Positions 17,426 through 45,623 of a stretch of DNA of 54,162 nt are shown piece after piece. Both the position numbers and the translations under genes were made by a program. The stretch comes from a virus. Lineage: Duplodnaviria > Caudoviricetes. The notes below the pieces were generated by a model that did not search any database, was not told where the DNA came from, and was given only the letters and a program-made list of their open reading frames with translations. How positions within the stretch are numbered: position 1 is the stretch's first letter; the number at the start of each line of letters is the position of its first letter. The stretch spans positions 1 to 54,162 of IMG/VR virus record IMGVR_UViG_3300022827_000011. One strand, given 5' to 3'.

Positions 17426-18109
17426 TTAAATTTCTGGAAATAAACATTTTTGAATAAAAATATCCACATCAACGGAACTAAGTCCAAGACTTACCATTGT
17501 TCGTGGGGTATGAGGATTTTGTTTTTGAAAATATGCATATCGATTTTGTGCAGCGCGATTTATATTTTCATTGCCTGTATGATTATAGATGCCTACTAAT
17601 GAAAGATAGTCGTCTACATTAGCTAGACTTAAATCCACAATTTGAGCTAGTTCGTCTTCTTTGCTTACATTGCCTGCTGCTATCATGTGTGACGAAAAAA
17701 TAGCCTTAGCCCATTCGGGCAGGTCTCGAGACTTGCGCCACTCTAGCCGAGCTGATTCAGATCCAAACGCCTGAATCATTTCATGAGACGGATCGCTACT
17801 AGCAGAGTAATCGTGAAAAAACCCTGTAATTTTGTTTTTACCAGCAATAACATCTAGCCCAAATATAGGAGCAGAATTATGTAAATGCGGGAATATGCAA
17901 CAATGCATCATCCACAGCCCTCGAGTTTCGCGCGCATCAACTACATCAACATGTGCTCGACGAAACGTATTACTAGTCCACACTCGATTGACCCATCCTG
18001 GACGATTAAATTGTTCCATACCGGGTTCAAATACTTCAGAGCCAACAGTGTTAAACTGTTTAATTAAATGCTCTTGTATTTGAATTAGCGCCTTCCATAC
18101 TTCACTCAT
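17426..18109 (-). CDS. pcyX: ferredoxin-dependent bilin reductase (PcyA/PcyX family)
   Basis: RRAHVDVVD, HCCIFP..PIFGLDV, FHDYS, R.LPEWA.IFS and Q..Y..QKQNPHT motifs; adjacent to heme oxygenase. Confidence 0.82.
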   Translation of the reverse strand: MSEVWKALIQIQEHLIKQFNTVGSEVFEPGMEQFNRPGWVNRVWTSNTFRRAHVDVVDARETRGLWMMHCCIFPHLHNSAPIFGLDVIAGKNKITGFFHDYSASSDPSHEMIQAFGSESARLEWRKSRDLPEWAKAIFSSHMIAAGNVSKEDELAQIVDLSLANVDDYLSLVGIYNHTGNENINRAAQNRYAYFQKQNPHTPRTMVSLGLSSVDVDIFIQKCLFPEI

Positions 18110-18785
18110 TTGTTTTATCTCTATAAATGTAATATAGTTTCAAGGCTCGATTATAAAGAACATTGCACCCTTGATCTTTTTCAATTTGGTCTACATATAG
18201 CTGCAATGCTATTGCAATAATTCCGTTATCGGTATCTAATACAGATTCGTTAATTTCTAATTCCTTAAATAATGTCATAGCAAATTCAAAACATATATTT
18301 GCTTCTGGTGCCATTTCGTCGGATAACATATTACGTATTGTAGATTTCAATACTTCCAAATTGTCAAAATCATACATAGTACCGGACCCTGGATTGCGTT
18401 TGCGAATCATTTGTCCGCCGTACATATCGCCAAAATGTCTTACATAAATATGTGCTAACAACCTATTTTTGTCTTGCATCTGCATTACATAGTCTATATA
18501 TTCAGCAACAACACTACATAAGGATATACTGTTAGGTTTGATATCATATTCGGTTTCTATCTCGGAAATATCTGCAAAAATTCGTTGTGCTCTTGCAACA
18601 TGCTCTATTCCAACGAGAACATTGCAAACAGTTGCTTGATTTTCTAACGCTTGATATATTGCATGTTGATTGCTTAAATATCTGTGATATTCTTTTGCAG
18701 ACATACCGTTTAACAACTTACGAGCATGAGTAGTGCGTTCTGCACGTTGATGATTAGCCCATGTTAGCTCTTTTAATGTACTCAC
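18102..18785 (-). CDS. hemO: heme oxygenase
   Basis: LKELT..H..AE (proximal His), AHIYVRHFGDMYGGQMI, EA..F.FA. Confidence 0.92.
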   Translation of the reverse strand: MSTLKELTWANHQRAERTTHARKLLNGMSAKEYHRYLSNQHAIYQALENQATVCNVLVGIEHVARAQRIFADISEIETEYDIKPNSISLCSVVAEYIDYVMQMQDKNRLLAHIYVRHFGDMYGGQMIRKRNPGSGTMYDFDNLEVLKSTIRNMLSDEMAPEANICFEFAMTLFKELEINESVLDTDNGIIAIALQLYVDQIEKDQGCNVLYNRALKLYYIYRDKTNE

Positions 18786-19090
18786 TTGTCTTCTTCGATC
18801 TTTAGTCGAAGAGGAAATCCGTTTTCTTGTGCAGCGCGAGTTGCTTCTCCAACTTTTTGCTCGGCAATCTCGTGACTGTAAACTCCTACTACTCCAGCAC
18901 CGTTATCGTGTATTTCTGTAGTAATAACAGTTGCACTTTGTTCACTATGTTTAAACAAGTCAACTAATAAAGATACTACAAAGTCCATCGGAGTTTGGTC
19001 ATCATTAATCATAATAACTTTATATCGTCTGGGTTCTTTTTTATTTAATTTAGTTTTTTCGTCAACAGCTATTTTAGTTTTCGTGCTCAT
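18782..19090 (-). CDS. clpS: ATP-dependent Clp protease adaptor ClpS
   Basis: YKVIMINDD.TPMDFVV, IH..G.GVVGVY..EIAE.K, FPL. Confidence 0.95.
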   Translation of the reverse strand: MSTKTKIAVDEKTKLNKKEPRRYKVIMINDDQTPMDFVVSLLVDLFKHSEQSATVITTEIHDNGAGVVGVYSHEIAEQKVGEATRAAQENGFPLRLKIEEDK

Positions 19091-19210
19091 TATATTTCCT
19101 ATGAGTTATGTAAGTAGTGGGTAATCACTACTTACATTTATCAATGATAGATTGTTTTAATTTAATTTTTGAATGTACTTACATTACATTATAAAATGTA
19201 AGTAATAGTC

Positions 19211-19229
19211 AGTGATAAAGTTTATCACT
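19211..19229. promoter_or_regulatory. perfect palindromic operator candidate
   Basis: AGTGATAAA-G-TTTATCACT upstream of clpS-hemO-pcyX. Confidence 0.4.
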
Positions 19230-19238
19230 AATTGAGTA

Positions 19239-19469
19239 TTAAATACTCTGATCTTTAATCAGTTGCTTTTTAAACCGTCGATTTGCAGCAAGTTTAGCCT
19301 TACGTGCTTTGGTTCCTTTACTTTCAAAAAATTCTCTAGTACGCATTTCTTGAAATAGTCCGTCGTCTGCTAACCGCTTTTTTAACTTGCGTAAAGCCTT
19401 GGGTAGATCGTTATTATAAACTTCAACTTTACTGCCTCTAACAGATTGTTCTTTAGCGTGTTTACTCAT
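19239..19469 (-). CDS. rpsU: 30S ribosomal protein bS21
   Basis: V.V..NDL.KALRKLKK...G.F.EMR.REFFE...ARK.K.AA.RR. Confidence 0.92.
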   Translation of the reverse strand: MSKHAKEQSVRGSKVEVYNNDLPKALRKLKKRLADDGLFQEMRTREFFESKGTKARKAKLAANRRFKKQLIKDQSI

Positions 19470-19860
19470 TAGTTCCTCTAATTATGTTTTCAAGCATTAC
19501 AAAATCATATATCCGATTGTTGCTTATTAAATTATACAATAAAGTCCCGTCATTTGTCAAGTAAAAAGTATTAGGCTGTGCAATAAAATAAGAAATAAAA
19601 GGTCTAACTTTAGTATCACAGTTGTCGACATCAACAATCACCATATCAACTTTTTTAATTAAGTTAATAAGCCACCCTACATTATCAAATTCACTATCGT
19701 ATAGATATAAATTTAAATAAAGAGTTGACTCACCGAGAACTTGATTGAGCTGGTGCTTTCTGTCAACTGATGGACATATTAGCAATATGCTATATACATC
19801 GTTATTTAGAGTATCAGGCGGGGTGATTAATGATATATTATTCAATTTACTCGGTTTCAA
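19462..19860 (-). CDS. hypothetical protein
   Basis: 132-aa ORF. Confidence 0.75.
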   Translation of the reverse strand: MKPSKLNNISLITPPDTLNNDVYSILLICPSVDRKHQLNQVLGESTLYLNLYLYDSEFDNVGWLINLIKKVDMVIVDVDNCDTKVRPFISYFIAQPNTFYLTNDGTLLYNLISNNRIYDFVMLENIIRGTNE

Positions 19861-21490
19861 TAGACGGAGATGCTATAACATCCCAGGGAAGACTAGTAAT
19901 CTTCCCTTTTATATACTGGTCTTTCCAGAATTTTATATTTTGAGTTGGATTTTCTAATTTCCAAGTATTTTTAGATGTTTTATAAGTATCGTCTTGCTCG
20001 TTGATAACTAACTGAGTGTACCGGGCAAGTTGAAATTCGTCCATTCTTTCGGAAGAGTCTCCTCCATAATCACTGGTTCTATCTGTGTCACGCATCTCAG
20101 TGGGGCTAGTTTGGTTGATTGTTGTATAGGGTTCGCTAACAGGGGTGCAAATAGAAGGTGAGGTATTAGAGACATATTGGTTGTGACTTTCTGTACAAGG
20201 CTGATAACGATTTAGTATTTCCTGAGTTTGGAAATTGAACTGATTATTTTGTAAAGTTATGCGATCTTGTTCGGTAGCCGCTAACTCTTTTTCTGTAGCT
20301 AATTTTTCAGCATAATAAGTTTTAAAAGTAGTTTGACTGGCTATTAGCAATAACACGGCTAATGGATCAAATACAAATATTATAAGTAATATTACCCATT
20401 GAACTGATTTTTCTAAAAGATCGGCATCAGCAGTACCTCCGTACACAAATTCAGCAAGATATTTAATAGGACCGACTTCGGCTTCTAACTTTCTGTACTC
20501 AATTTGTAACACACTTTTCTGTTCAATTAGGTTTTCAATTACATTATTTGCATTATTAATTTTTATTTGTTGCAGATCAACCATATTGTCAATTTTATTA
20601 GTATCCTCGATTCCTAACTGCAAGCGAACTCTTGAAATTAGTCGATTGCTATCTTCAATTTGAGTTTCAGATAAGCTCCTTAGTCTAGAGATTTCATCTC
20701 TAGCTGCTACGATCTCCGGACGAGGCGCAGACCTAATAGCATCAACTTGTAATAATACTGCGTTACGAGCTGTTTCTTGTGTTTCTCGATAAGATTGTAT
20801 TCGGCTACTAGTATTTGATCCTAATTTGCCATCCTGAACTGCTCCTGCAATTCCTTGCGCGATCTGGATGTCGTTGTTAGATAGTGCTGTTGCCAACGCA
20901 GAAATGTTAGCATTTATACTTGCTACTTGATCTAACAACGGAGTTATTCTATTTTCTAAAGTTAAATTGGAGTTTGAAATTAATGCCAACTGTTCGTCAA
21001 TGGCAGGTTTCATACGCAAATACGTACTATCTATCCTTGACTGCTCTATTTCAATCTTAGACTGGATTTCTGCATCGGCGTTTGTTCCGGATGATCGAAT
21101 GGTAGATATCGTCTGTTCAGCAAGTTGAATAACATTGGATTGACGTTGTAAATCATCTTCAATGCGAGCAATTTGTGCTATGCTATCTTGTGCTTTGGAA
21201 GTTTGTTCAATATGTGCCGAACTTAAGAATCCAAAAATTCCAAGACTGGTGATTAGCATTAGTACAATAATTGCTGCACTAAGATATCCTTTTAACCACC
21301 AAACGGTTTTATTCCAATAACGATGCAACCATACTGCGGTAACTAATTTTGCAATTTCAAGAGTGCTTCCCATAATTATAATAGGAATTGCTGCGCCAGC
21401 AAAGATGGCAACTAATCCTGCTACGCTGTAGAAGATTGCAACAGCACTAATAGCCAGTGCTGTAATTAAAACTAATATACCTAGTATCAT
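19847..21490 (-). CDS. membrane-anchored coiled-coil protein with possible peptidoglycan-binding motif
   Basis: N-terminal TMs, long coiled coil, DGKLGSNT, and a C-terminal TM IIFVFDPLAVLLLIA. Confidence 0.8.
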   Translation of the reverse strand: MILGILVLITALAISAVAIFYSVAGLVAIFAGAAIPIIIMGSTLEIAKLVTAVWLHRYWNKTVWWLKGYLSAAIIVLMLITSLGIFGFLSSAHIEQTSKAQDSIAQIARIEDDLQRQSNVIQLAEQTISTIRSSGTNADAEIQSKIEIEQSRIDSTYLRMKPAIDEQLALISNSNLTLENRITPLLDQVASINANISALATALSNNDIQIAQGIAGAVQDGKLGSNTSSRIQSYRETQETARNAVLLQVDAIRSAPRPEIVAARDEISRLRSLSETQIEDSNRLISRVRLQLGIEDTNKIDNMVDLQQIKINNANNVIENLIEQKSVLQIEYRKLEAEVGPIKYLAEFVYGGTADADLLEKSVQWVILLIIFVFDPLAVLLLIASQTTFKTYYAEKLATEKELAATEQDRITLQNNQFNFQTQEILNRYQPCTESHNQYVSNTSPSICTPVSEPYTTINQTSPTEMRDTDRTSDYGGDSSERMDEFQLARYTQLVINEQDDTYKTSKNTWKLENPTQNIKFWKDQYIKGKITSLPWDVIASPSIETE

Positions 21491-21514
21491 ACCAAGTTAT
21501 TTATCGTCTTTAAA

Positions 21515-21883
21515 TTAGTTACGGCGCATCTGTGCAATATCTATCGCATCCTGTTTTTTATCTGCAAAAACCGGAACCATATTTGATTTGTGCATTGTTG
21601 CTATTCCTAGCAACTTACGTTCGCCGCTGTAAATATTCGGGGCCTTTGCAGCGCCATGCCCGGCAACCTTGTTACTTAAACTTACACTAGGCTTAGTAGA
21701 TCGATAAGGAGTAGTATCGCTAACTACTATAGTCAAATTCTTTTTGTCATTTTTAGTTTTGCCTACTCCTATGGCCTTAAGCCATGCTTCGTGGTTTTGT
21801 TTGGCTTGTATTAATCTCTTGCTGTTAGACTTCTTAACTTTAGATTTAAATTGTACTGTAATCTTTTCAAGATGCATACTCAT
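21515..21883 (-). CDS. conserved T4-like hypothetical protein
   Basis: GIATMHKSNxVPV motif. Confidence 0.8.
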   Translation of the reverse strand: MSMHLEKITVQFKSKVKKSNSKRLIQAKQNHEAWLKAIGVGKTKNDKKNLTIVVSDTTPYRSTKPSVSLSNKVAGHGAAKAPNIYSGERKLLGIATMHKSNMVPVFADKKQDAIDIAQMRRN

Positions 21884-21935
21884 AGTAAAGTTCCTGCTAT
21901 ATTAAAATGTTAGCAGGAACCCTGCTAGTAGTCGA

Positions 21936-22181
21936 CTATGCTGCACGTTTCCAAACTTGCTTGGCAGGAACACGAACAAAGCGCTTGTTAGTTTCGCTAG
22001 CGTTAGGATTAGGCATTGTAATCATAACGTTCTTACCGGCATCAAATGCACGACGCTGATTAATTACTCTCTCGCCGCTTGCAAGGTAGTCGGCTCGAAT
22101 AGCAAGTGTAATATTCCTTGCCACACTGCTGTGGATTCCGGACGATACATTGCCTTTGCTTTTGCCGCCTTTTTTAGCCAT
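21936..22181 (-). CDS. conserved basic phage protein
   Basis: TxPNPNxxETNKRFxRV motif; own TTGACA-17-TATAGT promoter (22218-22246). Confidence 0.75.
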   Translation of the reverse strand: MAKKGGKSKGNVSSGIHSSVARNITLAIRADYLASGERVINQRRAFDAGKNVMITMPNPNASETNKRFVRVPAKQVWKRAA

Positions 22182-22248
22182 TTTGTAGATTCCTTATGTT
22201 ATGTTGTTAATATAGTTACTATATACGAGACTGACGAAAGTGTCAATA

Positions 22249-22275
22249 CAAAAGGCCGCAAGTTGCGGCCTTTTG
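22249..22275 (-). terminator. intrinsic terminator
   Basis: CAAAAGGCCGCAA...TGCGGCCTTTTG hairpin. Confidence 0.75.
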
Positions 22276-22292
22276 TTACCAGTTATAATTAC

Positions 22293-22907
22293 TTAGAATC
22301 GAAAAGCTACACCAATATGTGCCTGTGTGGTGTCAATGCTATCATCAAAACTGCGCACAATTGCCGGAGTAACTGTCAGTTTATCGGCTAATGCCATGTC
22401 TAGACCTAACTTAACACTGCCGCCATTGCGAGCAAAGTCGTTGGACATGTTCCAACTATACGTTACTTCTCCAAATCCTGTGAAAACTTCACTAACTTGA
22501 TATTCTACACCGATAATTGGTGTAGTAAAAAAGTCGCCATTTTTAATGGTGCCCTCGGCAACAACATATTCTGCATTCAAAACACCGTATAGCGACATTG
22601 CATCAGCATTATAAGTAACAGTATAATCTAAACCAAGCCCTACTGTTTCTGCAGAACGAAGATGTTCTGCATACACGCCAACTGTACTAGTAACACTATC
22701 AGTAAGGACGTAAGTTAGCAATTCGGCGCCGACTGTTGCCGAAGTGTACCCGATGTTTTCAGTACCGACGACTTCGAGGTTATAGCGACCAAACTCGACA
22801 GTAACACTTGCAACAGTGTTATCAAAATTTTCAGTAGAAGACTGAGCAAATGCAGATCCGGTAGTCAGTGCAAGTGATGTAATCATTGCAATCATTGTAG
22901 TTTTCAT
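22293..22907 (-). CDS. outer-membrane beta-barrel protein
   Basis: Sec signal peptide ending AFA, alternating amphipathic strands, C-terminal IGVAFRF beta-signal. Confidence 0.8.
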   Translation of the reverse strand: MKTTMIAMITSLALTTGSAFAQSSTENFDNTVASVTVEFGRYNLEVVGTENIGYTSATVGAELLTYVLTDSVTSTVGVYAEHLRSAETVGLGLDYTVTYNADAMSLYGVLNAEYVVAEGTIKNGDFFTTPIIGVEYQVSEVFTGFGEVTYSWNMSNDFARNGGSVKLGLDMALADKLTVTPAIVRSFDDSIDTTQAHIGVAFRF

Positions 22908-22947
22908 GTTAATTCCTTTTGTTGTTTAACAGTTATAATTATAGCTT

Positions 22948-23157
22948 CTATTTACGTGTAGTCAATCGTTTTAACCGGAGACCCTCCGGTTCTAATAATA
23001 TTGCTGTTTTGTTGTTGCGATTTTGCAACGGAATGATAGCAGTTTCGGCTTGCCTACGGTCCCACCCAAACTTCTTCATAGCATCCTTATACATGTGTTC
23101 TTCATCCATAGTGCGAATGAGTGTATACAAATACTGGTCAATTTCAATCCAGTTCAT
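22948..23157 (-). CDS. hypothetical protein
   Basis: Start MNWIEID overlaps the upstream stop (ATGA). Confidence 0.6.
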   Translation of the reverse strand: MNWIEIDQYLYTLIRTMDEEHMYKDAMKKFGWDRRQAETAIIPLQNRNNKTAILLEPEGLRLKRLTTRK

Positions 23158-23333
23158 TTCTTTTTGCAATCTTTTTCAGCTTTAGTAAGCTTTTGATTCC
23201 ATGTATAGTTGCTAATACCCAATTCGCTTGCCATAGGACGAGTTTTTCCTACAGTAACAGCACCTCCTCGGCTTAAGAATTCCTGTATCAAGTCAGCATC
23301 TAGATTTTTCTTAGGTAACGGAGTCATTGCCAT
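23154..23333 (-). CDS. small protein with SutA-like motif (59 aa)
   Basis: Hand-translated MAMTPLPKKNLDADLIQEFLSRGGAVTV...; AAGGA SD. Confidence 0.6.
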   Translation of the reverse strand: MAMTPLPKKNLDADLIQEFLSRGGAVTVGKTRPMASELGISNYTWNQKLTKAEKDCKKK

Positions 23334-23590: not shown

Positions 23591-23915
23591 GCAAGGGTAC
23601 AGCATGAAACACACTGTACCCTTGCAACTTTTCTGTTTCTAGGTAAGTTGCCAACCCAAGTAGCTTATGCCGCTAGGGCAAAGCTCTCAATAGATGCGTT
23701 AGTATTTGCATTTATCAAATTTATTGCGTTAACCGAGCTTTCGCCGGATATTAATCAAATATGTGTTTTAATCCACGTCGATCCTATTTATCGCCCATAG
23801 CGTTTATCATTTAGTTGTTTACAAGCACTACCTTGAAGATGTCAATCACCCGTCTAAACTAATGGTGGACGATCTGGGTACCGCCCCCAGGTCCGTTAAA
23901 TCTATTACATATTAT
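23591..23915 (-). ncRNA. ssrA: two-piece (circularly permuted) tmRNA
   Basis: Acceptor piece ending ATCGTCCACCA at 23863, intervening segment, coding piece starting GGGCGAT at 23796 (G3:U70 pair). Tag 23665-23709 = ANTNASIESFALAA*; closing hairpin 23591-23625. Confidence 0.92.
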
Positions 23916-23952
23916 CTAGGACAACAGCCAATATATCTCTGCTGAACATACT

Positions 23953-23983
23953 TATTTATAACATTACTCGGCGGAAGTGTCAA
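23953..23983 (-). promoter_or_regulatory. tmRNA promoter (sigma70 plus TATAAATA)
   Basis: TTGACA-17-TATAAA(TA). Confidence 0.7.
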
Positions 23984-24123
23984 GATAAATTTTATAAGCA
24001 TTATTACAATGCTCACAGTCTTTACCGTCTACTTTTCCATGCCCGCCGTTGCATGTGTTGTTACCACAAGATCCGCATATGACTACATCTCGATCGCAAT
24101 GGGTGCAATACATCCATTTATGC

Positions 24124-24836: not shown

Positions 24837-25272
24837 AATTGTTTTCTTTTAATTTACTATTATCGGTAATATCTATATACCCTTCTAATAATTTAACAGA
24901 TATCTTGCCTGTTGAACAGAAATATTCTCTATAACCTGATGTAGTTATCTTACGTTCAATGGTTCCATTAACAATGTTTCCAATAGTTGATCTGCTAATT
25001 TTTACTACAGACTTACGAGATAGTAAGTTTCTTCCTGATATCTTTCTAAGCATTAATTCGGACAATATTTCGTCTGCATTATCTAGAACTATCTGTCGTG
25101 CTTGTACGGCTGAATTTGCAATTACAGTATACCCTTGAAATCTATAGTTATGATATCTGCCACTATAATAGTTGTTTCCTATGTAAACATGCCAACTAGT
25201 CATGTTAGCAAGCAGAAGCAATACAGATTTGTGATCTAGATTTTTAATAGCTTCTGTATTATGCAAGCGCAT
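24823..25272 (-). CDS. hypothetical protein
   Basis: 149-aa ORF. Confidence 0.7.
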   Translation of the reverse strand: MRLHNTEAIKNLDHKSVLLLLANMTSWHVYIGNNYYSGRYHNYRFQGYTVIANSAVQARQIVLDNADEILSELMLRKISGRNLLSRKSVVKISRSTIGNIVNGTIERKITTSGYREYFCSTGKISVKLLEGYIDITDNSKLKENNYESS

Positions 25273-25648
25273 ATCCTGTGTTTTGCAATTCTTCTAACAA
25301 TTTTCGAACAGTTTCTTCAGGCCAAACACCAGATATAACGCTTACTCCGCGATCGGCTTCGTCGATTACATCCTTGGATTCTTTAAGTCCGTAACCAGTT
25401 GCTATTCGAATGGCCTTAATAGCAGAAATTTTCTGTTTCACATTACCCGTTAATGCACGAATTGCTATAGTATTACTATGTTGACCTGCTATTAACTTTA
25501 TTAATACCTGCCGTTTCAGGCTAGGGTCAAATGCATCTAGCATTGCTTCAACTTTTTCTTGACCTTGGTCGACACCAATTTCTGTAATAGCAACACGCAT
25601 TAAATCAATAACGTGCCAGATTAACTTGTTAGAGTATACAGTTTTCAT
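25259..25648 (-). CDS. protein with ribosomal L7/L12 C-terminal-like domain
   Basis: KISAIKAIRIATGYGLKESKDVID matches the bL12 CTD motif KI.VIK.VR..TGLGLKEAKD.V. Confidence 0.75.
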   Translation of the reverse strand: MKTVYSNKLIWHVIDLMRVAITEIGVDQGQEKVEAMLDAFDPSLKRQVLIKLIAGQHSNTIAIRALTGNVKQKISAIKAIRIATGYGLKESKDVIDEADRGVSVISGVWPEETVRKLLEELQNTGYALA

Positions 25649-25818
25649 GTCTTTTCGTCCCAAACAATGCAACGTTCTTTAAACCATGCACGACGGACTG
25701 CTTTTTCTTGTTGGGTTTTTGCAAAATATATCCAACTTTTATATCCATTTACAAACATAATTGCATCGGCAATCATAGTTCCTACAAATAGTACAACGAA
25801 TGTTAATCCAAACATTAT

Positions 25819-26658: not shown

Positions 26659-26859
26659 TCACTGGTTGACTTTTGTTTGTTGTATCTCTTTGCGGCGCGC
26701 AGTTATTAACGGAGTCATGTCATGTAACGCTTGCCGGGCACGAACAGCACTAGCCTTAACACCGTTTGTTTCAAACTTTTCATGCTCTCGGATATATAAC
26801 AACCACGATAGTTTTAGTTGCTCATGTATCGAGTCTTCAGCTGTCGATAATATGTTCAT
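26659..26859 (-). CDS. small histone H1/Hc1-like nucleoid protein
   Basis: EKF..GVKASAVRARQAL...RRKEIQ motif. Confidence 0.65.
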   Translation of the reverse strand: MNILSTAEDSIHEQLKLSWLLYIREHEKFETNGVKASAVRARQALHDMTPLITARRKEIQQTKVNQ

Positions 26860-29179: not shown

Positions 29180-30274
29180 TCAAATAGCACAAGATTCGCA
29201 TATTCCGTCATCGCTGTCTTCCGATGGCAATGTTGGAAGGCCTGCTAATTTGTTAACATCTAATTCGCCCTGACCGTCATTGGTTTGGAAGTAGTAAAGC
29301 TGCTTTCCTCCAAATTTGTAAAACATTAATAATTCTTGTAACATTACGCTCATTGGGATCTTTTCATCTTCGTAGAATGCCGGATTATGACTAGTATTTG
29401 TGCTTATACCTTGATCGATATATTTTTGTAATACTGCCATAATCTTCAAATATCCCTGCGGCGACTTTTGATCCCACAGTAAATCGTATTTGTTTTTTAA
29501 TCTTTTGTATTCGGGAACAACTTGTTTTAGAACCCCGTGTTTGCTTTGCTTAACGCTAATTAAACTACGAGGCGGTTCGATACCATTTGTGGCGTTAGCT
29601 ACCTGCGCTGATGTTTCTGCCGGCATTAAACAAGAAGTAGTTGCATTACGAATACCAGTTGCTTTGAGTTGTTTACGTAATCCTACCCAGTCTTGACGCT
29701 CGACATGAGGAACTAGTTCGTCAACTGCTTTTTTATAAGTTTGATTTGGAGTGATTCCTTGTCCGTATTTAGTTTGATCGACTCTTGTACATGCGCCTTT
29801 TTCTACAGCTAGATCTGCACTGGCTTTAATAAGCCAATAACTCCAAGCTTCGGCCCATTCGTCTACGAGTGCAAGTCCGTTAGCATTGATATGTTGATAA
29901 GTTAGATCGTTCTTTGCTAACCAGTAAGCAAAATTAATAATACCCACTCCTAATGGTCTAAATTCTTCGGTACTTAGTCGTGCAGCAAGAACTGGATAAT
30001 TTTGATAATCTAGTAATGCATCTAATCCACGAATTGCAAGTCTACATACTCTCTCAAAATCGTCTGTAGTCTTGATATTACCCCAATTTATTGCACTAAG
30101 AGTACATAAAGATATACGACCATCGGGGTCATTTAGGTCATTAAGTGGGCGAGTCGGAAGGTCAATTTCTGAGCAATTGTGAACCAGTATGCCATTTGCA
30201 TAAAAGTTTTCATTTCCTTCTACAGTGATGTCATATACCGGCTCGATTGTAGCTAATTTTGTTATTGTTATCAT
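29180..30274 (-). CDS. nrdA: NrdA C-terminal fragment fused to split-intein C-half (33 aa)
   Basis: MITIT...VYDITV...NFYANGILVHN|CSEI, then RPLGVG, ANATNGIEP, KYIDQGIS, KQLYY and C-terminal CESC; AGAGG SD. Confidence 0.93.
   Translation of the reverse strand: MITITKLATIEPVYDITVEGNENFYANGILVHNCSEIDLPTRPLNDLNDPDGRISLCTLSAINWGNIKTTDDFERVCRLAIRGLDALLDYQNYPVLAARLSTEEFRPLGVGIINFAYWLAKNDLTYQHINANGLALVDEWAEAWSYWLIKASADLAVEKGACTRVDQTKYGQGITPNQTYKKAVDELVPHVERQDWVGLRKQLKATGIRNATTSCLMPAETSAQVANATNGIEPPRSLISVKQSKHGVLKQVVPEYKRLKNKYDLLWDQKSPQGYLKIMAVLQKYIDQGISTNTSHNPAFYEDEKIPMSVMLQELLMFYKFGGKQLYYFQTNDGQGELDVNKLAGLPTLPSEDSDDGICESCAI
30176..30274 (-). mobile_element. split intein C-fragment (IntC)
   Basis: Blocks F (VYDITV) and G (VHN) followed by +1 Cys. 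Confidence 0.9.
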
Positions 30275-30354
30275 AATATTCTTCCTCTGTTCCAATTCCT
30301 AATAATCGGATGTGTTGCTTTAATATGTTTATTTTCTCGCCGCCTGTAATTCAT
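30271..30354 (-). pseudogene. 27-aa mini-ORF, possible homing endonuclease remnant
   Basis: MNYRRRENKHIKATHPIIRNWNRGRIL*; its stop overlaps the IntC ATG; AATAAATA upstream. Confidence 0.4.
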
Positions 30355-30399: not shown

Positions 30400-32472
30400 T
30401 TACTTACAAATTAACAACACGTCGGTTTCTGTTAAGTCAACTGCCATCACATAACCGCGATTCTTAGTATAGATTAGATGATCGCCTGTACATTTAATCC
30501 TGACTCCTGCTGCATTATCTACAATTTCATATAATTCTGCTGCTGGGTTCATTAATGCAAAATTGGTAATTTTCTTGTATTCGGTTACATCTGTTTCAAT
30601 ATTATATGACCGTACAGCGACGCTATTATGTAACTTCATTAAGTTACCCAAGTCTTCGATGTTGATGCGTAACTTGTTATCGTCGGCAATAATGTCAATC
30701 TTTGTATCACCAGTAACACATAAATTTGACATCTTGATGGGTGCAAACTCTGGTAGGAAGCTGCCTTGTTCGTTGGCGTTGTCCACGTTCTGCAAATAGA
30801 TTCTGCCTGTAGACTTGCGTTCTTCCATGAATGCACTAAACAGATCAATTGCTTTAACCGACTTTTTGCGTACAGTTGGGTTGTGTTCTGCTGCTTCGTA
30901 TAGCTCACGGAATCGCGGTTGGTCTGCAAAGAATGCATCGTATAATCCCGGTACGTCACTAGGCGAAAATAATGTAATGTTACCGCCTTGAATTAATCTC
31001 TCGTACATTAGCTTATTAAATTGTACACCGTAATCTAAATGCCGAATTCGATTTTCTTCTGTGCCTTTGTTGTTCTTAAGCACCAGCATATCTTCTACTT
31101 CTAGATGCCATAGCGGATAGTATGCTGTAGCAGCACCGCCTCTTACCGAACCCTGGCTGTTATGAGTTAACACCATCGAGTCAGACACCGACGAACTTGC
31201 AAAGAATGTATTAGTGTCTTCTACTGTAATGTCAACATACCCTGTTGGATTTTGTTGTCCAACTGTAATCGAATATAAATGTACAATGCCATTTTCTGAA
31301 ATAACGTTGTCAAATTCTGTAAGTTCTTGTGGATATTTTTGTGTTACAACATCGTTATCTACAATCATAATTGGATGATTTACACTACAATTTATTACTG
31401 TTCCGTTTGTAAATTCTAGTCTAACCTGCCGGTCTTCTGTTACTAGTGTATCCCATTTGTTAACAACTTTTCGATATACAATATTTCCGTCTTGATATGA
31501 TTTAATTTTCATTCCGGTATTAAGATCTGCAATACGGATTTTTTTTGTGTTTGGATCAATAATATCTTCGTTGATTATTTCAACAATAGTATCCGGAGTT
31601 AGGCAGCAACTCTTTACAGCCGACTGGAACAACTTATAAAAGGGAATTACTCCTGTATGATATGCATCTCCCTTGCGAATTGGAGAACCGATAGCACGGA
31701 TACTGCCAGCGCCAATTCCAATACCAGCTTTTTGACTTACATACTTTACAATGGCACTGGAAGTAGCATTAATACTGTCTAAGCTATCTCCGGCTTCAAT
31801 TAGCACACAACTACTGAATTGGCGTTGTGGTGTACGTACACCTGCCATAACAGGCGTGGGTAAGCTAATATCGTGTTGACTAATTGCATCATAATATTCT
31901 TTAACCCATTTAATCCTAGTTTCAATGGGGTATTCCTGAAATAATGTAGCAGCAATCAATATGTAACACATTTGTGGTGTTTCAAAGATGTCTCCGGTGG
32001 CACGATTTTGTACCAGATACTTTCCACGTAATTGTTCCATTGCAACATAGGTAAGAGTTTCGTCGCGCTCGTGCTTAATAAAACTATTGATCTTTTCCCA
32101 TTCAAGATCACTGTATTTTGTAGTTAATTCGGGATCGTAGAATCCTGTAGCAGTATTACGGTCAACTAGTTGCTTGACAGTACAAGGAGTAAAACTACCG
32201 TATACTTCCTTACGTAGTGCATAATTAATTAGCCTGCCGCCAACATATTGATAATTCGGAGTATCTTCGTTGATAAGGTCGGCCGCAGCTTTAATTAACG
32301 TTTCTTGAATTTCTTTCGTAGTCATTCCATTATAAAACTGAATTTGACTCTTAATTTCTACTTCGCTTGGGCTCACTCCTGTTATACCTTCACATGCAAA
32401 AAATACCACTTGGTGGATTTTTTCAATATTTAGAGGTTCTTTCGTGCCGCCACGCTTAGTAACTTGAATCAT
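30400..32472 (-). CDS. nrdA: NrdA N-terminal fragment with cis mini-intein and terminal split-intein N-half
   Basis: ATP cone (VTKRGG..E), PTPVMAG, QFSSC, AGIGI, KSC|intein|SQG.VRGG, and SNL|CVTGDT... Confidence 0.95.
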   Translation of the reverse strand: MIQVTKRGGTKEPLNIEKIHQVVFFACEGITGVSPSEVEIKSQIQFYNGMTTKEIQETLIKAAADLINEDTPNYQYVGGRLINYALRKEVYGSFTPCTVKQLVDRNTATGFYDPELTTKYSDLEWEKINSFIKHERDETLTYVAMEQLRGKYLVQNRATGDIFETPQMCYILIAATLFQEYPIETRIKWVKEYYDAISQHDISLPTPVMAGVRTPQRQFSSCVLIEAGDSLDSINATSSAIVKYVSQKAGIGIGAGSIRAIGSPIRKGDAYHTGVIPFYKLFQSAVKSCCLTPDTIVEIINEDIIDPNTKKIRIADLNTGMKIKSYQDGNIVYRKVVNKWDTLVTEDRQVRLEFTNGTVINCSVNHPIMIVDNDVVTQKYPQELTEFDNVISENGIVHLYSITVGQQNPTGYVDITVEDTNTFFASSSVSDSMVLTHNSQGSVRGGAATAYYPLWHLEVEDMLVLKNNKGTEENRIRHLDYGVQFNKLMYERLIQGGNITLFSPSDVPGLYDAFFADQPRFRELYEAAEHNPTVRKKSVKAIDLFSAFMEERKSTGRIYLQNVDNANEQGSFLPEFAPIKMSNLCVTGDTKIDIIADDNKLRINIEDLGNLMKLHNSVAVRSYNIETDVTEYKKITNFALMNPAAELYEIVDNAAGVRIKCTGDHLIYTKNRGYVMAVDLTETDVLLICK
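30403..30720 (-). mobile_element. split intein N-fragment (IntN, 106 aa)
   Basis: Block A CVTGDTKI, block B CTGDH; ends RGYVMAVDLTETDVLL then stop. Confidence 0.9.
31159..31605 (-). mobile_element. contiguous mini-intein (149 aa, no endonuclease)
   Basis: CLTPDT start, CSVNHP block B, YVDITVEDTNTF block F, THN|S end. Confidence 0.9.
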
Positions 32473-38713: not shown

Positions 38714-38731
38714 ATCGTATTTAACAGTCAT

Positions 38732-38764: not shown

Positions 38765-38783
38765 AACATTAAGTTAACTACTA

Positions 38784-40333: not shown

Positions 40334-41010
40334 GACAATTCTTTCCACGATTTAAGAGTTTTAAGTTGATTCAATAATTCGTATGCTTGAGTAGCAGACA
40401 TAGATTTCATAATCGATTCAAGACTATCGAGGCTCGACACAGACGAGTCGGATCCTAGCAGCAGATATGCAACTTGGTCAATATCATTGGTGATTAATTC
40501 TCCTCTCTTGCCTTCTAGATTACGTCGGCATAATCCTCTAAATGCATCCCACAGTAGTCCTTTACTGTTTGCTATTAGCATTATTGCTAAATGCTTGTTA
40601 ACACCTTTATAAGGACTGTCTTGCGGAATGTTGTGTAAATGAAATTTGCTTATTTGCAATGCATGTGGAGTTACTAGCAAGTCAACTTGATAATGATGCC
40701 CGCTGACTTCTACATTTAAATGTACAGCAATACCATTTAATTTAGTTGTTGCACCGTTCTGGTCAAATACTTGTTTTAATCTTCGCCGCACCTGCTTTGG
40801 ATTTTTTTCTCTAAACACATTTTCTAATGCAGTTTGATCAATTAGTACATCATAGTCGCCGCTGGTCTTTCCGACTGTAGGAGTTGCAGTACTACCGATA
40901 GGAATAGTTAATATCCCAAGAGGTGACAGTATGTTATCTAAGTATTGTTGTATTGCAGGAATTTTATCATAATTAAAAGGTTCAGTGTTTAAAAAAACAT
41001 TACCGCCCAT
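40330..41010 (-). CDS. Pol-beta-family nucleotidyltransferase-like protein
   Basis: GS...SGDYDVL and QVDL motifs; SPYKG. Confidence 0.65.
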   Translation of the reverse strand: MGGNVFLNTEPFNYDKIPAIQQYLDNILSPLGILTIPIGSTATPTVGKTSGDYDVLIDQTALENVFREKNPKQVRRRLKQVFDQNGATTKLNGIAVHLNVEVSGHHYQVDLLVTPHALQISKFHLHNIPQDSPYKGVNKHLAIMLIANSKGLLWDAFRGLCRRNLEGKRGELITNDIDQVAYLLLGSDSSVSSLDSLESIMKSMSATQAYELLNQLKTLKSWKELS

Positions 41011-41261
41011 TACTTCTTACTTTCAATTATCTTATCTATACCAGTTTTAAACTTGCGAGGATTGTTGGATTTAATAGCATTAATGAATCGTCGTTCTAAA
41101 TCAATTGCTACTTCTGAGTCGTATGTTTCATGTATCTTTGATAGTAAATTAATGGCACTTTCAATAATATTACTTCCTGTTGATTGAAGAAATTCTTCTA
41201 CTCGATCGGTTCTTCCGATGGCGCTAAGTTCTTCTAAAATACTTCTAGTGCGTTTTTTCAT
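41010..41261 (-). CDS. conserved phage hypothetical protein
   Basis: Likely start MKKRTRSILEEL, following TATAAATA and a GGGGA SD. Confidence 0.75.
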   Translation of the reverse strand: MKKRTRSILEELSAIGRTDRVEEFLQSTGSNIIESAINLLSKIHETYDSEVAIDLERRFINAIKSNNPRKFKTGIDKIIESKK

Positions 41262-41417
41262 AATAGATATTCCCCTTAAAGTATTTATACGCAATGTAAC
41301 AGCTAGATATAATAGTGTCAACGATATTCTATCCATGCAATATATGCATATCGGGTTTGCGATAAGTTTGGCATAATATGCTTGTATTGTTGCGGTTTTT
41401 ATGTTAAATATAGTTAA

Positions 41418-41432
41418 TGCTGCAATGCAGCA
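41418..41432. promoter_or_regulatory. palindrome TGCTGCAATGCAGCA (PhaR-box-like)
   Basis: CTGC-N3-GCAG core upstream of the small-protein operon. Confidence 0.4.
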
Positions 41433-41457
41433 CACGGATACACCGATAGGATAAAAT

Positions 41458-41616
41458 ATGTTAACACTTTTTCGAGAGCTTTGTAACTCCTTTATAGGGG
41501 CTTATGATCGTGACTTACGTCAATGGGCCAGCATGGAATACAAACACGATGCCGAATATGCTTACAATTACGTTATACAATACAAATTAGCGCCAAGATT
41601 AGGATTACCAAAATGA
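41458..41616 (+). CDS. small hypothetical protein (52 aa)
   Basis: Hand-translated MLTLFREL...WASMEYKHDAEYAY; AGGA SD; ATGA coupling. Confidence 0.65.
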   Translation: MLTLFRELCNSFIGAYDRDLRQWASMEYKHDAEYAYNYVIQYKLAPRLGLPK

Positions 41617-41774
41617 TTGCAACTATTAAACTATGGTTTGCCAGACGGCAACTTTATAACACTACACACCGAGAATTAGACCGACTGACCAATCGCGAAT
41701 TACTAGATATTGGCATCGATCGCAAAATGATTACTCGAGTGGCATTAGAAACAGCATACGGATATCGCAGATGA
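41613..41774 (+). CDS. DUF1127 (YjiS-like) small protein
   Basis: W..RR....T.REL..LT.REL.DIGI.R..I. Confidence 0.88.
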   Translation: MIATIKLWFARRQLYNTTHRELDRLTNRELLDIGIDRKMITRVALETAYGYRR

Positions 41775-41953
41775 AAAAGTTTTTCAAATCTATATTAAAT
41801 TCGTCGCTTTTTCCTACTGAAAAACAAAAAATTTATACATGGCTAAGTGAAAGCAGCGATATAGTAGAATTAGAGCGGCGCCAAAGAATAATTGACCGAG
41901 GCGATGCACCTTGGCAAGTTGCTGCAAATTATAAATTGAAAGGATGGTCTTAA
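41771..41953 (+). CDS. DUF3563-like small protein
   Basis: WLSESSDIVELERRQR.IDRG. Confidence 0.7.
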   Translation: MKKFFKSILNSSLFPTEKQKIYTWLSESSDIVELERRQRIIDRGDAPWQVAANYKLKGWS

Positions 41954-42141
41954 TGGATGTATATCATGCAGTAACAGTATCCTACTGTGCGCTTTGTGAA
42001 ATAATGCAGCGATTAGCAAAATATATTGTGTATGTATTTGAAGATATTGGCTATGCCCGGGCTACTAGCGAACTAAGCAGAATGGGATATCATAAAGAAG
42101 CAGCTACATTAAGAGAAATGCGCCGCAAATTAAAAAATTAG
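41953..42141 (+). CDS. small hypothetical protein
   Basis: GYARATSELSRMGY motif; TAATG coupling. Confidence 0.65.
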   Translation: MDVYHAVTVSYCALCEIMQRLAKYIVYVFEDIGYARATSELSRMGYHKEAATLREMRRKLKN

Positions 42142-42213
42142 TTGACAATAATAAATTAATATGCTACAGTAGCTTACTACCGTAGTAAACACACACACAC
42201 AAAGGAATACATA

Positions 42214-42513
42214 ATGAACGATATGAACAAACAATTTGAGCAATTTGCTGAAATGATTAAAGTAGCAATGCCTACTATGCCCACTGTTACTACTTCAAAA
42301 AACGGGTACGAAATTAGAACCAAGGTTCTTGAAATGGCTCAATCTCAAACATGGAATGACTATAATGCTAAACTATGTGCGTTTGAGACTAGCATTACCA
42401 AGGAAGGTGATGAAATTGTTACTAAAGTGACTATGCCCACTGTACCAGGTATAGATGCGGTATTAGAAGCCGCACAGAAGTTTTATGATTTTGTAAGTGG
42501 CAACAAAAAATAA
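42214..42513 (+). CDS. conserved phage hypothetical protein
   Basis: KNGYEIR..VLEMA ... A.KFY.FV; own TTGACA-17-TACAGT promoter at 42142-42170. Confidence 0.8.
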   Translation: MNDMNKQFEQFAEMIKVAMPTMPTVTTSKNGYEIRTKVLEMAQSQTWNDYNAKLCAFETSITKEGDEIVTKVTMPTVPGIDAVLEAAQKFYDFVSGNKK

Positions 42514-42555
42514 TATATTAACTATTAGAGTATAGCTCTCACTAATTAATTAATT

Positions 42556-42589
42556 AAAAAGCCTTCTGGTATATCATGCCAGAAGGCTT
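42556..42589. terminator. terminator between convergent genes
   Basis: AAAAAGCCTTCTGG...CCAGAAGGCTT. Confidence 0.7.
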
Positions 42590-42628
42590 AACCATCTAAT
42601 CCTAGCTACTGTTGATAGCTTCTCCAAC

Positions 42629-43951
42629 TTAACGAACTCCGTCCCATTGCGGTATCGCCTTGTAGCCATTTAATCCCAGCTGCTGTTGATAGTTTTTCCA
42701 ACTCGGCGGACTCTGTCTGATTGCGTCCTCGCCTGGTACCCATCTAGATTTTAAAATTTTTGTAGCATACATCAATGATGCAAATGCGTCAGTTGCGATT
42801 GCAGGCTCTCCTTCTTTAAATGGTTTCATGCCTAATGACCGAGACGCATATTGATACGAACTCCTAGCAGATTGAGCAATAAGAGTTTCGAGAGCAGGTA
42901 CTGGACCTTTGTAAAACGATTGTGCTATTTTCACTGCGCGTTCCGGCGAGCCTTTTACATAACTTTTAATAAATTCCTGTTCTTTATTATCGTCGGATTT
43001 TAAAATTCTTCTTATATCCATTGTTAATTCGTCTGGCGCGCGTTGAAAATAATACGCTAACTCTTTACCGGAGAACGGGTGTAACAAGAAATCAAAATTT
43101 GCCTCAGTGGCCATTTCTCCTAAATTGTCGTCGTCGTCGTCTTCGTAGTCAGGCGAAGTCTGATCTGCTTCACGCTGCACAAAGTTAACTAACTGGTCTA
43201 ACACTTCATACATAGCATCTAACTTACTTTTAAATAAATTTGACGTTATTGGGTTTTGATCTATAAAATATTCTGCATCAACTGAGCTTAATGGCAAATC
43301 TTGTGAATCCATAAACTGTCCAGTTTCAAAATGAAACTGAAATTTACCTTTACGTTTTTTATCATACCATATGTATAATGATCCGTATTTGTTATAAAAG
43401 TTAAATTGGTTTTTCTTTTTGGCCGCTGTACACCATTTGGTACCACTACCGAGTATACAACTAGCCTCTTTGGTTTTAGGAACACTGAGTATCCCTAGTG
43501 GTCCATTATACAAAACATTAACATCGTCAACTGCTTCGTCACTAGGTGCTGCAAGTTCGGTATTATCAAGTTTGCGAGAAAGTTCGGCTAGCGTATTCCA
43601 GTTGTATTGATTAATATCGCTATTGATTTCTAGTCGTTTATGCTGTCCTTTAGTTTTTGTAAATATCGTTAACTCGTCCTCTAGTTTGTATAAATCTTCG
43701 TACTTCATTGCGTTTTTAGTAAATTGTTTAATTATCCATACTACAAATTGTTTATTAACTGTAGGGTCGGCATCTTCTGCAGCAGATATCACAGTTAATA
43801 CAATTTCTTCGTCACTTTTATTATTGGTTATACTTTTAAGATACGTATCGGATTTTGCACGGGTTACTATAGCCGAAGTTGTTGCTAACACGGTTTTTGT
43901 TCTATCGTATTCAAATAGTGTAGTTTCTGTAATAAATTCTATGTATCTCAT
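42629..43951 (-). CDS. large hypothetical protein with ASC..G.GT.WCT motif and C-terminal helical repeats
   Basis: 440 aa; shares a domain with 48222-49592. Confidence 0.8.
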   Translation of the reverse strand: MRYIEFITETTLFEYDRTKTVLATTSAIVTRAKSDTYLKSITNNKSDEEIVLTVISAAEDADPTVNKQFVVWIIKQFTKNAMKYEDLYKLEDELTIFTKTKGQHKRLEINSDINQYNWNTLAELSRKLDNTELAAPSDEAVDDVNVLYNGPLGILSVPKTKEASCILGSGTKWCTAAKKKNQFNFYNKYGSLYIWYDKKRKGKFQFHFETGQFMDSQDLPLSSVDAEYFIDQNPITSNLFKSKLDAMYEVLDQLVNFVQREADQTSPDYEDDDDDNLGEMATEANFDFLLHPFSGKELAYYFQRAPDELTMDIRRILKSDDNKEQEFIKSYVKGSPERAVKIAQSFYKGPVPALETLIAQSARSSYQYASRSLGMKPFKEGEPAIATDAFASLMYATKILKSRWVPGEDAIRQSPPSWKNYQQQLGLNGYKAIPQWDGVR

Positions 43952-44017
43952 ATAACTTCCTTGACTGCTATTTTTTAATATTTATCGTTGCTTACTGTAT
44001 TAACTAATAAATACTGT

Positions 44018-45217
44018 ATGATAGACCCTGATCCATTTCGAGCAATACTAACTGAATATCGCGGTACAGGAAAATACCGAGTATTCAATGATATTAATAG
44101 ACAACAAGGCAGCTTTCCTAATGCAGTCTGGAATAATAACAATACTCCTAAACCGGTTATCAATTGGTGTTCAAACGATTACCTAGGAATGGGACAACAC
44201 CCGTTGGTGTTAGCAGCAATGCATTCTGCGTTGGATCACGCAGGAGCAGGATCAGGCGGTACTAGGAACATAGGAGGTACTGGTCAATATCATATTGCAC
44301 TTGAAAAAGAGCTAGCAAGTTTACATAATAAACATGCTGCATTGCTGTTTTCAAGTGCATATGTTGCAAATGAATGGAGTCTAATCGCATTAAGCAAAAT
44401 CATTCCCGACATTGTGTTTTTAAGTGATTCCAAGAATCATGCAAGCCTCATACAGGGTATCCGACACAGTGGTGCTATCTATAAGATATGGCAGCACAAT
44501 GACATAAGCGATCTAGAAGCAAAATTGGTAGAAGTCGTTGCATCAAATCAAACTCCTTGCATTGTATTTGAATCTGTGTATAGCATGGACGGAGACGTTA
44601 GCCCAATTGAGCACATTTGCAATCTTGCCGAGCGTTATGGCGCTATTACTTACATAGACGAGGTTCATGCGGTAGGATTGTATGGAGAGCATGGAGCAGG
44701 GTACCTAGAACACCTAGGAATTCAACATCGTGTAGATATAGTCAACGGAACGCTCGGCAAGGCAATAGGCATTAGTGGCGGATATATTGCTGCGGACAGG
44801 GATGTTATAGACGCAATTCGCAGTATAGCCAGTGGTTTTATTTTCACAACATCTATGCCACCGGTATTGTGTGCAGGAGCATTGGCTAGCATAAAATATC
44901 TAAAGACACATTATAGCCTTCGGCAACAACATCAGCTAAACACGGAAAACTTTAAACAACAATTACAATATGCAAATATTGAATATTTAAAAGAATCGTG
45001 TACTCATATTGTTCCTGTAATGATAAGAGATGCAAAACGAGCTAAGTTGATCAGCGATGTATTGTTGGACAAATACGGAATATTTGTCCAACCTATTGTT
45101 TGGCCAACTGTAGCAGTAGGCACAGAAAGATTAAGGTTTGCTCCTACTCCGTTACACACAGACATTATGATAGAGCATTGTGTAAAATCATTAAAGGAAG
45201 CATTAAATGAATATTAA
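44018..45217 (+). CDS. hemA: 5-aminolevulinate synthase
   Basis: [50 protein letters not shown] (PLP Lys), ERLR. Confidence 0.95.
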
Positions 45218-45623
45218 AAAATTACTATGGCTAGTTACAGGATTCTTTTGCTTAGGAATGACTTATGTTGGAATTGTTGTTCCTGGTATTCCATTTAGCA
45301 TCTTCTTAGTAATGGCTGCATATTGTTTTAGCAAGAGTAGTGAACGTATGCACAACTGGATATACAATCACAAATATTTTGGACCATTCCTAACTAACTG
45401 GACACAAAAAAAAGTATTTCCGACTTACGGAAAGTATGCCATGGTGCTAATGATGACAAGTAGCTTAATAATACTCTGGGTTACTACAGAAAATATTAAA
45501 GCAGTAATGTGGAGTGGTGGATTTATGATTTTAGTCGCTATATGGGCTGCTCGGTATCCAGGAAGTGTTGCAGAACAAGAACGTAGAATTGCAGCAGGCG
45601 AAAAAATAGCGTGGATTAAATAA
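45207..45623 (+). CDS. YbaN/DUF454 inner membrane protein
   Basis: G..VPGIP..F...AAYCF.KSSER.H.W...H..FGP...W. Confidence 0.88.

Follow-up and report, generated by a model that had tools for sequence, protein, structure and literature searches.

The 54,162-base DNA analysed here (the window) is the whole of IMG/VR virus record IMGVR_UViG_3300022827_000011. It is a fragment of an uncultured giant phage and carries three genes of tetrapyrrole metabolism: valaS, for a viral 5-aminolevulinate (ALA) synthase (ALAS); hemO, for a heme oxygenase; and pcyX, for a ferredoxin-dependent bilin reductase (FDBR). Judged by gene content and layout, this trio is the 'broken cassette' form of a published viral gene set. 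Each half has a companion, a small membrane protein of the DUF454 family next to valaS and the ClpAP adaptor ClpS ahead of hemO, and relatives of the phage encode giant repeat proteins that might accept the bilin product. The explanation joining these elements (a fragment of a giant phage of alphaproteobacteria, a split trio, a pathway read from homologues, companion genes, and an acceptor in the lineage) is likely right in outline. CheckV places the completeness of the record at 15%, which implies a whole genome of about 350 kb. The genes of the two sets are the following.

44018-45217, plus strand: valaS, viral 5-aminolevulinate synthase, 399 residues from its ATG (TIGR01821, 550.4 bits; cut-off 338.55)
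45207-45623, plus strand: small membrane protein of the DUF454/YbaN family, 138 residues (PF04304, 98.4 bits; cut-off 35.1)
18782-19090, minus strand: clpS, ClpAP adaptor, 102 residues (PF02617, 101.5 bits; cut-off 23)
18102-18785, minus strand: hemO, heme oxygenase, 227 residues, GTG start (PF01126, 59 bits; cut-off 23)
17426-18109, minus strand: pcyX-type ferredoxin-dependent bilin reductase, 227 residues (PF05996, 53.8 bits; cut-off 31)

The reductase is PcyX-type on both bit scores and residues. In phmmer comparisons it matches PcyX (5OWG) with 219.8 bits (E 3e-64, residues 4-225) and the best PcyA (2D1E) with 50.3 bits. The 12 Protein Data Bank (PDB) entries matched at E ≤ 0.01 all belong to PcyX or PcyA, with none for a Peb enzyme among those listed, and the NCBIfam PcyA equivalog model gives 77.3 against a cut-off of 206. 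Asp55, in the stretch RRAHVDVVD, aligns with an Asp of 5OWG and with the Glu of MHLEL in 2D1E, and His69 and Asp86 are kept; the corresponding PcyA residues we take to be Glu76, His88 and Asp105. None of the three residues varies across the 82 aligned sequences, which comprise that of the window, those of 80 viral relatives and that of Pelagibacter phage Mosig. An earlier note on this DNA had pointed to the His/Asp pair and to an Asp in RRAHVDV where PcyA has Glu, and had placed the enzyme with PcyX; the alignments to 5OWG and 2D1E uphold both statements, and the protein is not closer to cyanobacterial PcyA or PebS. Asp55 is described as the PcyX-specific catalytic residue, and PcyX enzymes make phycoerythrobilin (PEB) (Wegner et al. 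2024, Nat Commun 15:8783, PMC11480375).

The three minus-strand genes form a compact unit in which the clpS stop overlaps the hemO start by 4 nucleotides (nt) and hemO overlaps pcyX by 8 nt, as expected from the coupling (17426-19090) proposed in the earlier note. HemO aligns with Synechocystis HO-1 (1WE1) at WANHQRAE (KKSHSMAE in HO-1) and FGDMYGGQ (LGDLSGGQ), keeping the N-terminal His...E and GDxxGGQ, which are presumably the heme-ligand site and the distal helix; on these features it is classed as a canonical-type heme oxygenase. The best solved match of ClpS is 3DNJ (Caulobacter-type, 71 bits), in which NDDYTPMEFV and VHQNG correspond to NDDQTPMDFV and IHDNG. The NDD.TPM.FV and H.NG stretches, which we take to form the substrate pocket, are thus kept, and the protein scores under all NCBIfam equivalog cut-offs (best 91 against 149).

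Counts for the hemO-pcyX locus refer to the best 80 of 295 viral-contig relatives of the reductase, 59-69% identical to it. A clpS gene lies upstream of hemO in 73 of the 80 loci, at a distance of up to 100 nt in 62 of them and of up to 400 nt in the remaining 11, and where a 1.2-1.5-kb insertion separates hemO from pcyX (5 loci) clpS still abuts hemO. Synteny with clpS-hemO-pcyX extends to the gene for ribosomal protein S21 and to two genes next to it (19462-21490), in 55-65 of the 80 loci. On the other hand, clpS is also found in unrelated cultured giant phages without bilin genes, and its neighbours in the window (IF-1, S21, the tmRNA) are translation and proteostasis genes; it may simply be part of a module of that kind. 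Between the S21 gene and clpS lies a 148-nt spacer with an inverted-repeat element that may be a terminator or an operator placed before the unit. A further gene stands close behind pcyX.

19109-19204: TACTTACA four times, as two inverted pairs (8 copies in the window against 3.5 expected)
16415-17416, minus strand: p333, a 333-residue gene 9 nt downstream of pcyX

The p333 protein was considered as a bilin acceptor and rejected: it accompanies only 5 of the 80 loci, and its Atlas neighbours are phage proteins, some of them with HaeIII/HpaII restriction-endonuclease families. The gene is probably not part of the pathway but a nuclease-type mobile insertion.

The valaS product is well separated from related enzymes, the next family, Kbl, scoring 324.7 bits (under its own cut-off of 460) and BioF and serine palmitoyltransferase also falling below theirs. 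Solved ALAS structures match with 438 bits (7X98) and 423 bits (2BWN, the R. capsulatus enzyme), and the pyridoxal phosphate (PLP) lysine, Lys248 in 2BWN, is kept (GTLGKAIG aligned with GTLAKAYG). An Arg stands at the position of 2BWN His342; the alignment stops at residue 388, and the last 11 residues contain no Cys. vAlaS is accordingly read from its alignment as a complete PLP-dependent ALA synthase without either of the heme-feedback residues (His342 and Cys400). Translation could also start at an in-frame TTG upstream (43988), giving 409 residues. Many vAlaS proteins lack these same two residues, and a vAlaS from a phage rescues E. coli that is auxotrophic for ALA (PMC11480375). The earlier note had placed hemA-ybaN behind a 'late-type box'. 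This did not hold: the upstream sequence (44005-44013) is TAATAAATA, not TATAAATA, and counts of both motifs are at chance level (2 in the window against 3.4 expected for TAATAAATA; 10 against 9.6 for the T4-type TATAAATA). Sites resembling those of sigma-70 between 42 and 47 kb are likewise at chance level (19 against 17.9). A tblastn search of 50,697 deposited phage records yielded no true ALAS, only Kbl/BioF-like paralogues of at most 37% identity, mostly from records that resemble host DNA. In viral contigs a single-protein query found nothing, and an alignment query recovered matches.

The gene for the DUF454 protein overlaps valaS by 11 nt, so that the coupling of the two (44018-45623), as the earlier note had it, stands. 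The identity of its product is another matter: against NCBIfam PRK10527, the equivalog model of E. coli YbaN, it scores 62.8 bits (cut-off 163), and by these profile scores it is classed as a DUF454 member, not as an orthologue of E. coli YbaN. An ALAS relative is encoded on at least 519 viral contigs; among the 80 viral ALAS loci from these that were examined for neighbours, a DUF454 homologue adjoins ALAS in 53. In metagenome loci the two adjoin on the same strand in 69 of 80, with DUF454 directly downstream in 38 and directly upstream in 31, and only 5 of the 80 lack it despite room on both sides. Adjacency that outlasts a swap of gene order argues for a functional pair over frozen synteny. 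The same association is seen in FDBR-bearing viral records, 50 of which were searched (from the best 80 relatives, longer ones favoured): DUF454 is present in 10 of the 12 that have ALAS and in 11 of the 38 that do not, and in both ALAS-bearing records without it ALAS lies at the contig edge.

Outside phages the pairing is confined to suspect cases. In the bacterial genome collection DUF454 stands beside ALAS in 8 of 80 loci, all eight phage-like (the 61-68% identity group, within L175-L185); they come from metagenome-assembled genome (MAG) bins assigned to widely differing phyla (one of the loci is on a contig of 335 kb) and are probably phage contigs mis-binned as bacterial. DUF454 was not seen beside the ALAS of Neisseriaceae, Francisella or Pelagibacter, nor found in five genomes of bacteria whose true ALAS comes closest, and in the 50,697 deposited phage records it occurs only in doubtful ones. 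A link of the family to heme or iron in bacteria is hinted at from several sides: it is induced under iron restriction in Avibacterium (PMC7970244) and co-occurs with hemophore-secretion loci alongside heme oxygenase (preprint 10.1101/2024.09.26.615229). In a Neisseriaceae sample (84 of 124 open reading frames (ORFs) scanned, from 20 of 30 loci) hemO lies directly upstream of DUF454 on the same strand in 2 of the 20 loci (L282:690-1845 and L288:724-1851), and in 8 of the 20 DUF454 is next to DUF1415 instead. The near-obligate pairing with valaS provides a first functional handle on this widespread membrane family. A complex prediction for vAlaS with DUF454 (score 0.00, mark 0.32) is uninformative either way.

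The two gene sets co-occur in genomes, as the earlier note had suggested checking and as the counts bear out. ALAS exceeds its cut-off in 12 of the 50 FDBR records, including the two records with a completeness of 90% or more and 4 of the 6 with 60% or more; conversely, FDBR exceeds its cut-off in 13 of 15 long ALAS-bearing records, the two misses being 26% and 29% complete. They do not co-locate: hemO or pcyX lies within 6 kb of ALAS in none of the 80 viral ALAS loci, which makes the split layout the rule in the clade to which the window belongs.

Read, for the three enzymes, by way of characterised homologues, these genes would form the following pathway. vAlaS would sustain synthesis of ALA, and hence of heme, in the infected cell, and its DUF454 partner would handle ALA, porphyrin or heme at the membrane. 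HemO would open heme to biliverdin IXalpha, Fe and CO, and PcyX would carry biliverdin on to phycoerythrobilin in a four-electron reduction; the electron donor would be a ferredoxin of the host, since none is seen in the window. Co-transcribed with hemO and pcyX, clpS might retarget host ClpAP, and the pathway would not need it. In this lineage the bilin would most likely end up covalently attached to the cysteines of CXRD motifs in tandem domains of giant proteins, which are seen in relatives and not in the window.

These giant ORFs, 692 to 4416 residues long in the records searched, consist of tandem modules of about 155 residues with a phycobiliprotein-type fold, and are found in G025 (L265:7639-14556), G004, G006, G017, G030 and G049. 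Behind the repeat ORF of G025 stands a gene whose product has a tropism-determinant domain at its N-terminus. The stretch of G025 with a sub-threshold Pfam match is one copy of the module, and copies recur in giant ORFs of each of the five large relatives. An alignment of 18 copies shows a K-C-x-R-D-x-G motif whose Cys and Asp vary in none of the 18 and whose Arg is the consensus residue at its position. Searched against the PDB, the module profile gives 28 matches, all of them phycocyanin alpha chains (E 0.008-1.8), with the motif aligned to Cys84/Arg86/Asp87. A model of the module (pLDDT 88.5, pTM 0.85) resembles phycobiliproteins in all Foldseek matches listed (E 0.017-0.07, TM score 0.41-0.64), and the top eight chains in VIA-align belong to the phycobiliprotein family (Z 11.1-12.8, root-mean-square deviation 1.9-2.7, 109-139 residues aligned), closely followed by sensor globins (Z 11.0) and a photocobilin (Z 10.4). 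By this modelled likeness the module appears to have a phycobiliprotein-type globin fold with CXRD at the Cys84 position. Of the 50 FDBR records 10 have the module, among them all 6 with a completeness of 60% or more, as do 8 of 14 long ALAS-bearing records; the family comprises 1596 cluster representatives (E up to 0.001), with as many as 37 copies in proteins of up to 6382 residues. CXRD is the covalent bilin site, and related bacterial bilin-binding globins attach bilins by themselves (Rockwell et al. 2023, PMC10151467).

That PEB of this phage lineage is covalently attached to the CXRD cysteines of these tandem domains, vAlaS and DUF454 having been recruited for tetrapyrrole supply, is offered as a tentative proposal, somewhat on the doubtful side. 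If it is true, these phages make pigmented proteins, which may absorb light, in a host that is not photosynthetic, and the question of what viral hemO and pcyX are for has its answer. The presence of the repeat family in all six relatives at least 60% complete makes it a concrete candidate acceptor that can be tested cheaply.

A number of observations weigh against the explanation given above or loosen parts of it. For the acceptor, the phycobiliprotein-like repeat profile matches no ORF of 40 or more residues in the window, and Pfam recognises no bilin-binding apoprotein there either (87 ORFs scanned; no GAF, PHY or phycobilisome family), as the earlier note had already stated. In the relatives, Pfam Phycobilisome reaches 16.9 bits (cut-off 22.2) in one of five large records, in the 2305-residue ORF of G025, and hmmscan of that whole protein gives no Phycobilisome match. 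The E-values are marginal (0.008-1.8 by sequence, 0.017-0.07 by Foldseek), and a Z of 12.8 is within the range that helical folds reach through a common arrangement, according to the tool itself. The module was tallied in FDBR- and ALAS-bearing records, a set that holds no control phages lacking hemO and pcyX, and bilin lyases of the T and S types (CpeT and CpeS families) were not found in the five large relatives. For the conserved gene order, the synteny sets contain near-duplicate contigs (56 unique FDBR sequences among 82) and come from one phage clade, so that conserved order may be shared descent; G006, a relative of 208 kb and 100% completeness, has hemO, pcyX, ALAS and DUF454, dispersed, and no clpS, which is therefore not required. 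For the host, the tmRNA type considered below is the only direct pointer. For the connection between the two gene sets, ALAS and DUF454 are both missing from two large relatives (71% and 61% complete) that do have hemO and pcyX; in the window the sets lie 26 kb apart on opposite strands and thus are not one transcription unit; and co-expression of HemO and an FDBR with vAlaS did not reduce the build-up of porphyrin (PMC11480375).

The last points bear directly on the proposal of the earlier note that the phage boosts heme flux and converts the heme into a bilin and free iron. That proposal stays an inference: a single heme-boosting and heme-converting pipeline is plausible but unproven, because of the separation of the sets and the lack of porphyrin relief. 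Nearly as good is an account in terms of two independent helper modules, vAlaS with DUF454 sustaining heme and further tetrapyrrole cofactors for respiration of the infected cell and HemO-PcyX drawing on existing host heme, which we rate as not far short of an even chance. Besides the distance between the sets, the absence of hemO and pcyX from the surroundings of every viral ALAS locus and the large relatives that do without ALAS, it draws on phage Mosig, which has hemO-pcyX, and on the lack of true ALAS throughout the deposited phage records; cofactor maintenance has been proposed for vAlaS, the purpose of the phage catabolic genes being called 'enigmatic' (PMC11480375). Independence does not sit easily with the strength of the genome-level co-occurrence (13 of 15 long ALAS records, 4 of 6 of the more complete FDBR records), nor with the true three-gene cassettes of other phages (PMC11480375).

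The reading of the reductase product as a chromophore for an acceptor can also be set against iron salvage, in which HemO would free the iron of host heme for phage iron enzymes, PcyX would clear biliverdin, and the bilin would be a by-product with no acceptor. Heme oxygenase chemistry does release Fe, the window encodes a class I ribonucleotide reductase small subunit of the iron-dependent type, and the behaviour of DUF454 in bacteria (induction under iron restriction in Avibacterium, occasional proximity to hemO in Neisseriaceae) fits; iron supply is among the roles discussed for the viral genes (PMC11480375). We nevertheless regard it as unlikely, since stripping iron from heme that vAlaS helped to make brings no net gain of iron, the invariance of the PcyX triad argues for selection on a specific four-electron product, and the lineage carries many CXRD phycobiliprotein-fold domains.

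Less probable still is a light sensor, with the bilin serving as chromophore of a phage or host protein (a phytochrome, or a small globin that binds bilin) by which infection would be tuned to light. The product of a phage PcyA does assemble a functional phytochrome in E. coli, and bilin biosynthesis-associated globins are mentioned as a possibility (PMC11480375). In the window, however, the families that would signal a sensor (GAF, PHY, phycobilisome) are missing among the ORFs scanned, and the phycobiliprotein-like domains of relatives sit in giant multi-repeat proteins that are not sensor architectures. Phycoerythrobilin, moreover, has no C15=C16 double bond, which is needed for phytochrome photoconversion. 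That bacterial DNA was misjoined to or misbinned with a phage contig, as the scatter of close ALAS relatives over MAG bins of very different taxa might suggest, is hardly credible, since both sets lie amid phage genes on one contig of uniform composition, relatives with conserved phage neighbours are found on hundreds of viral contigs, and mis-binned phage contigs explain the scatter better.

The remainder of the window conforms to a giant phage. It contains phage-only families, split ribonucleotide reductase genes and an HNH endonuclease; the G+C fraction is 0.33-0.42, uniform along the contig, and both tetrapyrrole sets lie among phage genes. A scan of metagenomes for a longer contig of the same phage returned relatives only (at most 77% identity); a 115-kb contig exists whose ALAS is identical to that of the window. 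The other features are these.

266-3519, minus strand: tRNA cluster, 11 genes by ARAGORN and 12 by Rfam, with Lys, Arg and Tyr species duplicated
7392-7793, minus strand: PTH2-like peptidyl-tRNA hydrolase
9211-9825, minus strand: PP-loop (TilS-like) ATPase
15791-16009, minus strand: IF-1
19239-19469, minus strand: ribosomal protein S21
23621-23987, minus strand: transfer-messenger RNA (tmRNA) of the permuted alphaproteobacterial type (RF01849, 96.4 bits, gathering score 50; RF04321, 95.8 bits)
25259-25672, minus strand: protein with the L7/L12 C-terminal domain
30400-32472 and 29180-30295, minus strand: two ORFs of nrdA (ribonucleotide reductase large subunit), each with part of an intein splicing domain
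41523-41953, plus strand, and 26659-26859, minus strand: DUF1127 and DUF3563 small proteins and an Hc1 histone-like protein
among 42629-43951, 46869-48158 and 48222-49592, minus strand: paralogous large proteins of phrog_17056 and phrog_28193, flanking the valaS-DUF454-HNH block

The hydrolase, the ATPase, IF-1, S21 and the L7/L12-type protein are host-like translation genes. The tag peptide of the tmRNA is ANTNASIESFALAA according to ARAGORN, and the permuted alphaproteobacterial type of this RNA suggests that the host is probably an alphaproteobacterium. That nrdA is divided into two ORFs means that its intein is either split or interrupted by a stop. Between the members of the paralogue pair, on the far side of the block, 46869-48158 (minus strand) encodes a third protein with a weak PARP-like match.

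How much of this was known can be stated fairly closely. Phage contigs from marine and freshwater sources have genes for vAlaS, HemO and PcyA/X, which may stand alone, form a cassette of three, or form a 'broken cassette' in which hemO and the gene for the reductase are together and valaS lies nearby, and a phage HemO made biliverdin (PMC11480375); ho1, pcyX-like and ALAS genes had been listed before that in large freshwater phages (Chen et al. 2020 preprint, 10.1101/2020.02.13.942896). The trio, including its split arrangement, was thus already published in 2024 and its gene types were listed in 2020, so that the window is another contig of a known class. Undescribed so far are the pairing of valaS with DUF454, the linkage of clpS to hemO and, in relatives, the family that may provide the acceptor: the main text of PMC11480375 does not mention ClpS, YbaN, DUF454 or S21 (its supplementary contig tables may show these neighbours unnamed), and no description of the pairing, of the linkage in phages, or of a phycobiliprotein-like acceptor in such phages was found in a literature search that did not cover subscription journals and supplements.

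Compared with the characterised viral set (PMC11480375), the window shares the same three genes on one phage contig, the split layout and the missing heme-feedback residues, and differs in its reductase: that of phage CB_2 is a true PcyA without Asp55, unlike the PEB-forming PcyX enzymes and the PcyX-type protein found here. The phages of Chen et al. (2020) are likewise giant phages with the same three gene types, known from an inventory only, in whose text ClpS is nowhere named. Among individual reductases the closest solved counterpart is 5OWG ('PcyX_EBK42635'), with which the window protein shares the Asp55/His69/Asp86 triad. Cyanobacterial and cyanophage PcyA (2D1E; P-SSM4 pcyA) belong to the same FDBR fold family and have the His/Asp pair, and are set apart by the low score already given, by an identity of 23-29% in the case of cyanophages, and by Glu in place of Asp55. 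Pelagibacter phage Mosig EXVC030M has a reductase 47.8% identical to that of the window, and hemO directly upstream of pcyX. The genome of this myovirus measures 141 kb, clpS is missing next to hemO, and a putative ferrochelatase gene is in the vicinity, whereas the phage represented by the window, at about 350 kb, has clpS fused to its hemO-pcyX operon. The module of the relatives, finally, can be compared with phycobiliproteins and with the bilin biosynthesis-associated globins (PMC10151467), with which it shares a globin-type fold and the CXRD motif; like the latter, it co-occurs with heme oxygenase and a reductase of the PcyA/PcyX branch. Unlike the single-domain subunits of phycobiliproteins, it is strung in tandem, up to 37 copies to a giant protein, and stays under the Pfam cut-off for the family.

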